This document shows, piece by piece, positions 59,965-64,000 of a stretch of DNA of 64,000 nucleotides. The notes beneath the pieces were generated by a model. The model did not search any database. It was not told the DNA's origin and saw nothing but the letters and a program-made list of their open reading frames with translations. Each line of letters begins with the position of its first letter. Position 1 is the first letter of the stretch. Origin of the DNA: Synechococcus sp. (lineage in GTDB: Bacteria > Cyanobacteriota > Cyanobacteriia > PCC-6307 > Cyanobiaceae); contig JBJBCN010000002.1 in the NCBI GenBank assembly GCA_047285805.1, positions 480,001-544,000 of the forward strand. Direction: 5' to 3'. A program made the translations under genes and the position numbers.

Positions 59965-61242
59965 TTATCGCGCCCAGACGGTGGGGAGGTCGCTCAGTCG
60001 GGTGGTGGCGGCCCGCGAGAGTTGCTCCCGCCGCATTAACCACGCTGGCTGGAGCCCGCAGGCGGCCCACTGAACCGTCCCGCTGCCGTAGCGACGGTTC
60101 AGTTGATCGATGCTGGCCATGAGGGCCTCCCGGCGCTGCTGCTCGACCTGGCTGAGGGGTTGCAGGAGGTGGTGCTGAAGCTGACTCTCCGGTTGCAGGT
60201 CCTGCAGCAGGATTCCGGCCTTGGCAAAGCGTTTGTAGGGTCGATAAAGGCTGGGAACCATCTGGCAGGCCGCCCGCAGCAGGACGCCGGTGTCGTTGCT
60301 GGCCAGGGGAAGGCTGAGGCTGGCGGCTTGGCTGTAGAAGCCGGGGGCGAAGGGACTGGTGCGGGCAAACACCGTGAGCCGTCCAGCCCGTTGCCGTTGC
60401 CGCCGTAACTTCTCCGCGCCGCGGCTGATGTAGCTGGCGACGGCTTGGCGCAGCTCTTCTTCGGTGGTGACGGGGCGGCTGAAGCTGCGGCTCACGCAGG
60501 TCTCCTGCTTCTCTCCGGCTTGCTGCTCCAGGGGCAGGCAGCTGATGCCCTGCAGTTCCAGTTGCAGGCGGAGGCCCACCACCCCGGCTTTAGCCCGCAG
60601 TTCTCCGCTGGGCATGTCCCGCAGTTGCTGCGCCGTACTGATACCCCGCAGCCGGCACCAGCGGCTCAGGCGCCGGCCGACACCCCAGAGTTCCTCCACT
60701 GGGGTTCGCTCCAGCCAGCTCGTAGTCTCCCCGGGGATGCTGAGGTCAAACACCCCTGCGTGTTGCCGATCCCCCTTGGCGATGTGGTTCGCCACTTTGG
60801 CCAGCACTTTGCTGGTGGAGAGTCCGATGGCAATGGGCAGGCCCAGGTTGTGGCGGATCCGGCCGCGCAGGGCTGTGGCCCAGGGAATGAGGTCGCCGTT
60901 GTTCGGTCTAGGCAGACGGATGAAGGCTTCATCGATGGAATAGACCTCCAGCTCGGCGACGAAGGGCTCCAGGCTGCTCATCAGCCGATTGCTCATGTCG
61001 CCATAGAGCGCGTAGTTGGAGCTGCGTACGACCACGCTGTGCCGTTGGAGGTGGTCGGCGATCTGGAAGTAGGGCTTGCCCATGCCGATGCCGAGTTGTC
61101 GGGCCTCACTGCTGCGGGAGACCACGCAGCCGTCGTTGTTGGAGAGAACCACGACGGGGCGGCCCAGCAGTGCTGGGTCGAAGGCCTGCTCACAGCTGGC
61201 ATAGAAGTTGTTGGCATCGATCAGCCCGAGGGCATCAGCCAT
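59965..61242 (-). CDS. umuC: Y-family DNA polymerase V catalytic subunit
   Basis: IDANNFYASCE, LSNNDGC, YSIDE, WGVG. Confidence 0.95.
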   Translation of the reverse strand: MADALGLIDANNFYASCEQAFDPALLGRPVVVLSNNDGCVVSRSSEARQLGIGMGKPYFQIADHLQRHSVVVRSSNYALYGDMSNRLMSSLEPFVAELEVYSIDEAFIRLPRPNNGDLIPWATALRGRIRHNLGLPIAIGLSTSKVLAKVANHIAKGDRQHAGVFDLSIPGETTSWLERTPVEELWGVGRRLSRWCRLRGISTAQQLRDMPSGELRAKAGVVGLRLQLELQGISCLPLEQQAGEKQETCVSRSFSRPVTTEEELRQAVASYISRGAEKLRRQRQRAGRLTVFARTSPFAPGFYSQAASLSLPLASNDTGVLLRAACQMVPSLYRPYKRFAKAGILLQDLQPESQLQHHLLQPLSQVEQQRREALMASIDQLNRRYGSGTVQWAACGLQPAWLMRREQLSRAATTRLSDLPTVWAR

Positions 61243-61714
61243 GGGCGGAGAGGCTATGAATGGCGTGGATCGCCACCCCCCAGATCTGGACGTCGCTGCA
61301 GTGGTGTAATTCGAGCGGGGGATAGGCGTTGTTGGCGGCCTCGAGCCGCAATCGGCCTTGGTGCCGGGCGAGGCGCTTCAAGGTGAAGGCGCCATCAAGC
61401 ACGGCTACGACGATCTGGCCCGGCCTGGCTTCGAGGCTGCGGTCCACGACCAGCAGATCACCGTGCTGGATTCCGGCGTCAACCATTGAATCGCCGCTCA
61501 CCCGCAGGAAGAAGGTGCTGTTGGGGTGGCGGATCAGGGTTTCGTTGAGGTCGATGCCGACATCCATGTAGTCATCGGCCGGACTGGGGAAGCCTGCCGC
61601 CACGGTGCTGGTGGCATGGGGCAGCCTCAGCTCCTGGGGCTCCTCCCGCGGTTGGCCCAAGAGTTGCGGCGGGCCGTCGGAGGACAGAGGGGCAGGCAAG
61701 GCCACGGGCACCAC
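61235..61714 (-). CDS. umuD: DNA polymerase V accessory subunit (S24 peptidase)
   Basis: AAGFPSPADDY, RVSGDSM, FTLKRL. Confidence 0.95.
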   Translation of the reverse strand: MVPVALPAPLSSDGPPQLLGQPREEPQELRLPHATSTVAAGFPSPADDYMDVGIDLNETLIRHPNSTFFLRVSGDSMVDAGIQHGDLLVVDRSLEARPGQIVVAVLDGAFTLKRLARHQGRLRLEAANNAYPPLELHHCSDVQIWGVAIHAIHSLSAHG

Positions 61715-62205: not shown

Positions 62206-62703
62206 TCAGCTGCACTCAAGGGTGTCTTTGGTGGCACGACCGGTGACCGGGTTCATGCCGCTGGCGCTGGCGCAGAGGGTTTTCAGGACGTCGCCGCGGA
62301 ACGGCACGTTGGTGAAGTCCGCACCTTCGATCAGGACATCCTTAAAGCGCGTGTTGAAGGCAAAGGCGTTCTCCAGCACCGCATTACGCAGGTCCGTTCC
62401 ATCGAGGACGGCTGAATCGAGGGTGGCGTCACTCAGGTCGGCGCCCGAGAGGTTGGCGTCCTGGAGCTTGGCGCCGTAGAGGCTGGTGCCACGCAGGTCG
62501 GCCCCTTGGAAATCGGCTTCCCGCAGGTTCGTCAGGTTGAAGGTGGCGCCGTGCAGGTCGACGCCAGCAAAGTCATGGCCGATCAGCACCTGCTTGGCGT
62601 AGTCCATGGCCGCCTGCGCCGGCTGGGCCGGGTGGAGAGCCGCACTGACGAGCAGCAGGGCCAGCAGCGCGGAGCGAAACAGTGCTCGGAAGAAGCGACG
62701 CAT
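62206..62703 (-). CDS. pentapeptide repeat protein (secreted/lumenal)
   Basis: Signal peptide, then A(D/N)LxG repeats; C-terminal NPVTGR.T..TL.C. Confidence 0.92.
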   Translation of the reverse strand: MRRFFRALFRSALLALLLVSAALHPAQPAQAAMDYAKQVLIGHDFAGVDLHGATFNLTNLREADFQGADLRGTSLYGAKLQDANLSGADLSDATLDSAVLDGTDLRNAVLENAFAFNTRFKDVLIEGADFTNVPFRGDVLKTLCASASGMNPVTGRATKDTLECS

Positions 62704-62777: not shown

Positions 62778-62934
62778 ATGGGGCGATTCGAGTCGCAACG
62801 GCGGGGCGATTGGGCGGAACAGCGGGCCCTGCGCTTGCTGCGGGCTGCGGGTTGGAACCGACTCTCCCAGCGTTGGCATTGCCGCTGGGGGGTAATGGAT
62901 TTGCTGCTCCATACACCGCAACGGCTGCTATTGG
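62778..62934 (+). pseudogene. yraN: YraN family nuclease, 5' fragment interrupted by an inserted element
   Basis: GDWAE.RA..LL...GW......W.CRWG..DL...RLLL; the expected VEVK motif is replaced by unrelated GDYLQKG and the frame stops at 62987. Confidence 0.8.
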
Positions 62935-64000
62935 GTGACTACTTGCAAAAAGGCTTAAAGTCAGTCCACAAGTGCCTTTTGGGCTGACTGCGATATGCAC
63001 GGTGGCTCTGTCGCCAAGACCAGTGGAGCCAATCCTGTGGCGATGAACAAGCTGGTCGCGATCTCCTATGCGCGTGTTTCGACCGGCAAGCAGTCGGAGG
63101 AGAGCGCGAGTGGATTGGAGCGTCAGGAGTTAGCCATTGCTCGCTGGCTTGAAGCGCACCCTCAGTACGAACTGGACCGCGAGATCAAGGCAGTCGGCTG
63201 GGCGCGAAAGCGGGACGTTTTGAGTGGTTCATCAAGGAGCTTCAGGAGGGCCGACTGCCACAAGGCACCTGCCTTGTGGTGGAGAAGATCAGCCGGTTCT
63301 CCCGAGAGCCTGTAATGGAGGTGCTGGAGACCCTCATTCGGCTGTTTCGAGCTGGGGGGTGCGTAGCGGCTTGCGAGTTGGGGGGTGAGGTGCTGAGCAA
63401 CTTGGACGGTCAAAACGGCGCTGTTTTCATGCTTGTGGGGGCGATACAGCGGGCTCGGGGTGAGTGGGAGGAGAAGCGGGACCGTGCTGCTGGCAGCAGT
63501 GCGAAGCAACGTCGATTGATCGCAGAGGGTGAATAGCCTTTCAGGGCAGGACAGAAGGGCAAGCGAGCTGACTACCCCTTCTGGCTGGACTTCAACCCCG
63601 ATGCCGGCCAGTTCGAACTGAACCGGCATGCCGAGTGGTTACGCCAAGCCTTTTTGTGGGCTCCTGAAGTGGGCAGCACTGTCATTGCTCGCAAGCTCAA
63701 GGAGATGGGCGTGCGTTCTCCCTCTGATGGACGCAAGGTCCTTTCGCACAAGCGCATTACCCGGCTCTTGAAAGACCGCGCAGTACTTGGGGAGCGGCAA
63801 TTCGTTGATGCCCGCCACAACCCCGTGGGCGAGCCAATTCGTGGGGTTTATCCGCCCGTGGTGACCGAAGACGAGTGGCGTCTTGCGAGAACTGCCATAG
63901 AGGCTCGTTTTGGAGGAAATCGGCGAACAGGCACAAAGCACCACTTGCTTTTTGAAGGCCAAGTTTTTTGTGCCCACTGCGGAGGCACCGTTGGCGTGGA
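62935..64000. mobile_element. left end of a putative integrative element inserted in yraN
   Basis: Abrupt loss of YraN similarity, an AT-richer junction, an inverted repeat at 62959-62989, then a large serine recombinase. Confidence 0.72.
63043..64000 (+). pseudogene. large serine recombinase (resolvase + recombinase + Zn-ribbon) with frameshift and internal TAG; runs off the window end
   Basis: ISYARVSTGKQ..LERQ; 1-nt loss near 63199-63200; LVVEKISRFSR; TAG 63534-63536; then YPFWL...IARKL...AVLGE...YPPVV...LFEGQVFCAHCGG. Confidence 0.85.

Follow-up and report, generated by a model that had tools for sequence, protein, structure and literature searches.

The window analysed here is a 64,000-nucleotide stretch of the host genome G000 (G000:C2:480001-544000), and it ends 1.07 kb into an insertion that splits yraN. 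The element measures 9,037 bp, this spacing being the distance between two copies of the core GGCTGCT, at 62923-62929 (attL) and at 71960-71966 (attR, outside the window). Positions beyond the window are given as window-equivalent, i.e., the L001 coordinate + 60000. ORFs that we take, from their translation, to be umuC-like and umuD-like lie at 59965-61714, immediately upstream of the left flank. The features of the locus are as follows.

Within the window:
62206-62703, minus strand: pentapeptide-repeat gene, conserved host left flank
62778-62929, plus strand: yraN 5' half, codons 1-50, with Asp41, drifting
62923-62929, plus strand: attL core GGCTGCT, predicted crossover CT at 62925-62926
62928-62952, plus strand: attL element arm, inverted repeat of the attR arm (20/25)
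62923-64000, no strand assigned: part of the element within the window
63043-64000, continuing to window-equivalent 64715, plus strand: pseudogene of a large serine recombinase (LSR) with Resolvase, Recombinase and Zn-ribbon domains; catalytic Ser codon 63079-63081

Beyond the window (window-equivalent):
65048-65797, minus strand: 249-aa ORF
65860-66138, plus strand: 92-aa ORF
66197-66547, minus strand: 116-aa ORF
66771-67727, minus strand: 318-aa multicopy inverse-autotransporter-like ORF
67838-69436, minus strand: HK97 protease-capsid fusion, with TAG at 68108-68110
69767-71233, minus strand: AAA_25 helicase-like ORF
71134-71901, minus strand: 86-aa, 80-aa and ribbon-helix-helix ORFs
71936-71960: attR arm
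71960-71966: attR core
71960-72063, plus strand: yraN 3' half, with a 115-bp deletion and a 1-bp insertion relative to the genome G023
72113-72925, plus strand: ksgA, host
72942-73874, plus strand: ispE, host

Structure and decay of the element in G000

The yraN 5' half begins at ATG 62778, matches PF02021 at model positions 1-33 only (E 5e-4) and ends before Val-Glu-Val-Lys, as the preliminary description had it. PF02021 is matched in 41/44 same-genus genomes and spans at least positions 1-71 in all except G018, and the intact orthologue of G023 matches YraN models and passes NF011281. Both the 3' half and attR, expected past position 64000, are present: a search with intact orthologues placed the 3' half at G000:C2:551960 (window-equivalent 71960), 9.04 kb downstream, followed by ksgA and ispE in the order seen in each of the 19 full-length relatives retrieved. 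The interruption lies in codons 49-50, with Asp41 on the 5' half and Glu54-Val-Lys56 on the 3' half, and thus parts the catalytic Asp from Glu-x-Lys; the Asp41-to-Glu54 spacing equals that of D37 to E50 in Legionella YraN, as given in the part of PMC13663708 covered. The insertion had been placed just before the active site, which is right with respect to Glu-Val-Lys, but the site is in two parts and Asp41 already lies upstream, so that the insertion is inside it.

The element-side arms of attL and attR are inverted repeats (20/25), and in the rebuilt attP 20/28 positions pair around a central CT, which was reached by 0/20,000 shuffles. The symmetry centre and predicted crossover dinucleotide is the CT at 62925-62926. 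The attachment sites had originally been centred on the GG at 62933-62934; this crossover is ruled out in favour of the 7-bp core, and the final Leu of the translated end 'RLLL' is already encoded by element DNA. The reported serine recombinase lies just downstream, starting at 63043 with all three domains, and with both cores, the 3' half and a symmetric attP located, the proposal that an LSR integrative element uses yraN as its attB holds. At this locus lies the left end of a phage-satellite-like element integrated via its LSR. From serine-integrase chemistry we infer the reaction itself: the LSR would recombine attP with attB at the CT within GGCTGCT (yraN codons 49-50), and an active element would excise as a circle, restoring yraN in frame.

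The junctions also withstood a check for misassembly. Contigs of run X2 cover L001 1500-4866 and 11080-13500 with zero differences, both junctions and both LSR breaks (see below) included; as this run is possibly the source of the G000 assembly, the match checks the assembly only. Metagenome contigs span attL (X13) and attR (X5). Although the two LSR breaks could pass for sequencing errors, an assembly artefact, or a truncated yraN and a recombinase adjacent by chance, is refuted by these contig matches and the duplicated core, and equally contradicted by the located 3' half, the symmetric attP and an identical junction in four other populations or genomes.

By gene content, the element is a capsid-encoding satellite with an LSR, a protease-capsid fusion and an AAA helicase; its gene set comprises the LSR, three unassigned ORFs, the 318-aa protein, the HK97 protease-capsid fusion, the AAA_25 helicase-like protein and three small ORFs. 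The HK97 capsid match is above the cut-off. Profile scans detected the AAA_25 helicase-like domain and no primase domain, and among the element ORFs scanned no terminase, portal, head-tail or tail genes were detected. The 116-aa ORF, considered as a small terminase, has no Pfam, PHROG or NCBIfam match, and its Atlas lead of 0.86 is below the useful level. The small right-end ORFs, the last of which shows a weak ribbon-helix-helix match, are candidates for a directionality factor. In an active element, the AAA helicase would serve replication, and the protease-capsid protein might be used together with a helper phage, packaging being conjectural with no terminase or portal detected.

The copy in G000 is dead, immobilised and decaying, because its LSR carries a frameshift and a stop, its capsid gene a stop, and the yraN 3' half is short by 38 codons. 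The LSR has one base missing at 63199/63200 and a TAG at 63534-63536 where homologues have Lys, and no second LSR copy was found in G000. Stop-codon recoding for the LSR and capsid TAGs was considered and rejected in view of the Lys in LSR homologues, the extra frameshift, and the related capsid gene of G285, which is open there. Rejoined, the G000 yraN would encode 82 aa vs 120. The 5' half differs from that of G023 by 11 non-synonymous and 5 synonymous codons in 50, compared with 11 non-synonymous and 45 synonymous in the 260 codons of ksgA.

Related elements and further sites in yraN

A protein search with the LSR yielded 48 homologues, of which 36 were aligned as a profile query; the alignment search recovered 36 metagenome loci, 2 viral loci and 1 genome locus. 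At L083/L084 (one population), L090 and L097, an LSR with 61%, 56% and 48% identity to that of G000, respectively, comes after a yraN 5' half interrupted at the G000 codon. In G018, both junctions lie at this codon on either side of an assembly gap; the rejoined frame is full (121 aa). Split yraN beside homologous recombinases, anticipated in the preliminary description, thus recurs at the same codon, and G018 and the three metagenome populations indicate that codons 49-50 are a genuine target of the element family. A GspH-like minor pilin, a prepilin gene of the pilin cluster, is interrupted by sister LSRs of 52-57% identity in 8 loci (L085, with only about 15 flanking bases available, L086, L089, L091, L092, L093, L096 and L120; L122 has the same sequence as L120 and was counted once), and the pilin insertion sequence resembles the yraN site. 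The target of L088, which is closely related to L090, is an unrelated gene; at the remaining loci, the flank was too short or the target not assignable.

Relatives of about 9.1 kb exist in circular or concatemeric form: L094/L095 represent one 9.1-kb element in circularly permuted versions, L119 is a two-copy 9,155-bp repeat, and both have capsid genes. L108 has the L096 element joined at an attP-type junction, derived from either a circle or a tandem copy. The single broken LSR as a query gave no match in genome or viral contigs; in viral contigs, no near relative of the element capsid protein and no match to a degenerate attL pattern were found. In G285 and G437, yraN breaks off near the same codon, but their 3' half was not found, and they were excluded from the counts; G285 retains capsid and ribbon-helix-helix remnants.

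Is this codon the only place at which yraN is invaded? PF02021 is matched in 264/401 family genomes, with no match in 137/401. We followed up 15 genomes with weak or double matches, together with G143 and G426, found via their LSRs; breaks past model position 71 leave the match strength unchanged, so the insertions counted are a minimum. Elements occupy yraN at five more sites in seven other picocyanobacterial genomes, with an LSR at four of the sites and with both halves located and rejoining in frame at each:

codon ~27: G143, 9.2 kb
codon ~33: G313, 13.4 kb
codon ~40: G324, 10.4 kb; G207, 46 kb; G220, 21 kb
codon ~56: G269, 13.8 kb, no recombinase found
codon ~88: G426, 18.2 kb

G416 has a left junction of the G313 type with an LSR remnant. 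Counting G018, the rejoined yraN is in frame and about 119-136 aa long in all eight genomes, and the LSR frame is open in G143, G207, G220, G313 and G324. LSRs from different yraN sites share at most 35% identity, and the nine yraN-associated LSRs as one clade were rejected (p-AU 0.0007, in a quick tree that used 25/53 rows and left out the long branch of G313).

As a control, the neighbouring gene DUF3082 (80-position model) was matched in 369 genomes, with best E-values never weaker than 1e-16 among the matches listed. Insertions inside the Pfam span number 7/264 for yraN vs 0/369 weak matches for DUF3082 among those listed (Fisher p 0.002, a value that overstates the difference, since the genomes are related and the control, a single gene kept even where yraN is absent, may itself be under selection). 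Elements in yraN are sporadic (2/45 genomes of the genus), and outside the family none was found in 130 cyanobacterial genomes. Taken together, the comparisons identify yraN as a recurrent LSR target in picocyanobacteria, convergently acquired, with six sites in about 360 bp; the presence of unrelated elements at several spots suggests that it is a favoured landing site for such elements.

Several candidates were dropped. G340 has an intact yraN with a stray 5' piece, G210 an intact yraN with extra DNA downstream, and G149, G244 and G348 a full-length gene; G300, G343 and G458 show partial matches with ksgA directly next and no insertion. In G467, the insert is in frame and leaves a single open frame, and G524 has an intact gene plus a decayed 5' copy with no LSR match. 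The extra DNA in G210 (L267, G210:C39:32654-46813) amounts to about 11 kb between yraN and DUF3082, with no family LSR detected. In L114:1-260, a more distant LSR directly follows the yraN stop codon, at the normal place of ksgA, a possible site at the yraN-ksgA boundary. The yraN element of G143 has, in addition, a gene for a small tyrosine recombinase and one of YhaV toxin-antitoxin type (L125:14862-16224).

Transformation as a possible target and its loss in the host

The gene that a survey of integrase targets labels as magnesium chelatase is presumably comM. It takes 12.4% of site-specific integrases, and LSR targets are enriched in competence genes, in the accessible portion of that survey (PMC10083194); yraN is not a label in its text or eight supplementary files, where attB is given as sequence and the site may be present unnamed. 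Competence genes reported as interrupted by mobile elements include comM, comYC, comGA, comFA, comEC, comK and pilQ in the portion of a review seen (PMC12378983), whose main text does not contain yraN. YraN is described as the partner nuclease of ComM (PMC13663708; abstract and sections 5 and 11): Tn-seq screens of Legionella and Synechococcus elongatus picked out yraN, transformation drops to 0.5-5% in null mutants of Legionella, Acinetobacter and Vibrio, and elements in the gene are not mentioned in these main-text parts. Minor pilins and SigF2 are required for transformation in S. elongatus, according to the part of PMC7125226 covered. The statement that yraN had not been described as an integration target stands: no such paper was found, in a search mostly confined to journals outside subscription. 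The new point is the target, with yraN hit at six positions, five of them by LSRs of mostly separate lineages, and a sister clade on a minor pilin. Like known competence-gene-interrupting elements, these insert site-specifically into a gene of the transformation pathway; unlike them, they have picocyanobacterial hosts and represent several LSR lineages at different sites of one small gene.

Among the carriers, comM is full length in G018, G143, G207, G220, G269 and G324, comEC and pilB/pilT are also whole in G143 and G324, and dprA is whole in G324, the sole carrier tested. In G143 and G324, the yraN insertion is the only lesion seen among the transformation genes examined. Further LSRs occupy comEC and a PLD-family gene in G220, the same PLD-family gene in G268 and a sigF-like gene in G309; these LSRs are more distant from that of G000 than the pilin-splitting ones. 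We assume the PLD-family gene to be the cyanobacterial uptake protein ComA. In G313 and G416, comM is split by 8-9 kb with no LSR detected. Two to three insertions in different transformation genes per genome were seen in G220 (L128, L179/L180, L262), G313 (L165, L260) and G416 (L130, L177, L261), and G268 (L127) is also among the genomes with such insertions. Another 32 family genomes contain 33 LSR loci; 8 of these lie in transformation-related genes and 11 in or beside mutY, yjbQ, gloA, thiD, luxR-type or SLOG genes; the remaining 14 are unassigned, four of these not having been examined. The mutY lineage (L129-L133, in G457, G416, G325, G157 and G363) covers five genomes and three genera, and its aligned protein is identical in 3/5 genomes, suggesting recent transfer.

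These data raise the question of why yraN is chosen. Integration there would lower chromosomal recombination of incoming DNA and so shield the element from curing. Because one short gene contains so many independent sites, we consider selection for such protection to be the most likely reason, at slightly better than even confidence. Both this and a neutral reading fit the LSR-target data. In the neutral case, yraN would be a harbour conserved at the DNA level, single-copy and cheap to lose, with loss of transformation as a side effect, which we regard as a real possibility at somewhat less than even probability. It agrees with the related LSRs in mutY (five genomes), yjbQ, gloA and thiD, with the partial yraN of G458, G343 and G300 that carries no insertion and the 137 family genomes lacking a match, with the several interrupted competence genes of G220 and G313, where a second hit adds little, and with the seemingly non-competent lineage that the G000 element entered (see below). 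However, the five LSR-used sites in the 360-bp yraN come from separate lineages, whereas the five mutY cases are one; the target switch within the clade led to another pilus/transformation gene, the minor pilin; and DUF3082 showed no break among the matches listed. Protection from curing may be part of a broader pattern, to which we give close to an even chance, falling just below it: LSR satellites would converge repeatedly on transformation (yraN above all, and by switching a pilin, a PLD-type uptake nuclease, comEC and sigF) as YraN-dependent recombination cures them. If so, transformation in wild picocyanobacteria of marine and fresh waters would be frequent enough to keep their genomes policed, and the occupancy of these target sites would set local recombination rates. 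As a whole, we are fairly confident of an LSR satellite in yraN, dead in the copy studied here, with the gene a recurrent target and selection the most likely reason.

In G000 itself, the advantage would have come too late. The genome is 100% complete by markers, and internal deletions hit the whole transformation and type IV pilus apparatus within conserved flanking DNA: comM has a 412-bp deletion and frameshifts, comEC two deletions, dprA is a 48-codon remnant, a 2.06-kb deletion runs across pilB/pilT, a second pilT has a 720-bp deletion, and the pilin cluster is absent (C2:1366299-1367423, C2:1266186-1267425, C3:147810-152989, C3:512251-513225, C2:1156904-1157355 and C2:1293205-1299130). 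By gene content, the host has lost transformation altogether. Of the genomes retrieved, G023 is the most similar, and its yraN is intact and empty; it shares with G000 the DNA replacing dprA and a 4.8-kb block replacing the pilin cluster, has its own comEC frameshift and pilB stop, and represents an earlier stage of the same erosion. Because these two replacements are common to the empty-site genome, competence was most parsimoniously lost first and the insertion came later; arriving then, it would have bought nothing. The reverse, that the insertion triggered the loss and the remaining genes decayed afterwards, is improbable: the deletions in comM, comEC and pilB/pilT are indeed larger in G000 than in G023, but G023 was already eroding with its yraN intact, and the element is probably recent in the G000 lineage, as wild relatives carry an LSR region about 96-97% identical.

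These LSR contigs come from seawater and sponge metagenomes; one spans attL, one attR, and one contig end matches the empty yraN site, which points to the element still being present in wild relatives of G000. In X4 and X5, the metagenome depth of the LSR is about 4-7 vs about 1,000-2,800 for the flanks, a hint only and not cell shares. Among the joints listed for four runs, no excised circle of the G000 element was found, in contigs only, from which rare forms are dropped. The suggestion that the insertion limits recombination of incoming DNA fails for G000, where comM, comEC, dprA, pilB, pilT and the pilins are gone or fragmented, and is plausible for the family in hosts such as G143 and G324.

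The role of YraN in the recombination step of transformation has been shown only recently, and whether this step removes mobile elements can be approached through evolution, from the recurrent and independent choice of the gene by integrases, which also brings picocyanobacteria into the conflict between transformation and mobile DNA. With the predicted attB/attP pairs, the curing hypothesis could be tested in Synechococcus elongatus, in which yraN came out of a screen as needed for transformation, and integrases with a conserved landing site are on offer for cyanobacterial genetics. The G000 copy alone is a fossil and ordinary.

Relation to known elements

In heterocyst-forming cyanobacteria, the serine recombinase XisF excises an element from fdxN, and the yraN element is likewise a cyanobacterial LSR element interrupting a protein-coding gene. 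An excisable switch of this kind, in which regulated excision restores yraN when competence is needed, had been proposed; we consider it very improbable. The in-frame, full yraN obtained on rejoining in all eight other genomes and the five open LSR frames agree with it, but attB is restored by any serine-integrase excision and is expected without a switch. Moreover, the elements are sporadic and satellite-like, occupy various sites, carry replication and capsid genes and show no sign of programmed excision, unlike fixed developmental elements. In G000 there is no switch, because the LSR and capsid gene are broken and the yraN 3' half is 38 codons short, so that excision would restore no working gene, and the partner genes are gone. 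The comparison with XisF survives as a loose analogy only: the C-terminal 392 aa of the LSR score 20.4 bits against the NF041201 (NCBIfam) cut-off of 375.

PICI integrases are usually of the tyrosine type, and that of the yraN element is of the serine type. The element has two PICI features, an integrase and a capsid morphogenesis gene (broken by the stop), and only the weak ribbon-helix-helix match in place of an alpA, merR or stl regulator. In the accessible text of PMC10085698, PICI and cfPICI likewise have an integrase at one end, a replication protein and a capsid, merged with the protease in some cfPICI; unlike them, the yraN element had no large terminase, portal, head-tail adaptor or connector detected among the ORFs scanned. 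PICI-like tycheposons (10.1101/2020.12.28.424599, as far as seen) are also picocyanobacterial, about 10 kb long, and combine an integrase, a replication gene and a major capsid protein, and the element has the corresponding set (integrase, replication gene, and major capsid protein or terS within about 10-20 kb). Tycheposons, however, integrate at tRNA genes, mostly by tyrosine recombinases (27/937 elements have an LSR), whereas the yraN element lies in a protein-coding gene and has a protease-capsid fusion and extra ORFs; no tRNA was found in the 60 kb of L001-L003 or in 57 LSR loci at which a tRNA or tmRNA site was sought. Marine virion-encapsidated elements (VEIMEs) of module 3, in the portion of PMC9618062 covered, are small satellites with serine recombinases that occur as concatemers (cf. 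L119), but encode no major capsid protein, which the yraN element family does. A further element-type paper for comparison, seen in part, is PMC7064763. The Resolvase, Recombinase and zinc-ribbon domains with a catalytic Ser, the common core of attL and attR and the symmetric attP are those of an LSR element. Because the tRNA site and the cfPICI genes were not found, we do not class it as a tycheposon or PICI; it works like a PICI-like tycheposon or PICI and is an LSR satellite, a fossil in G000.

Sequences related to the element occur elsewhere. In G424, a small 1.7-Mb family genome, L139 (G424:C1:440000-447000) has the same four genes in the same order (LSR, 116-aa ORF, protease-capsid fusion and AAA protein) at a glyoxalase-like gene, which reappears right after the LSR. 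Remnants of related elements in G000 (C2:1333896-1339292, 1144341-1147491 and 296407-298985) include an AAA protein 84% identical, capsid ends and the 116-aa ORF. The 318-aa protein (L001:6771-7727) is found at about ten other places in G000 and in the related elements L096, L130 and L256; it belongs to an inverse-autotransporter-like cluster and bears the automatic name 'carbamoyl-phosphate synthase'. A repeat near L001 4850-4970 has many copies.
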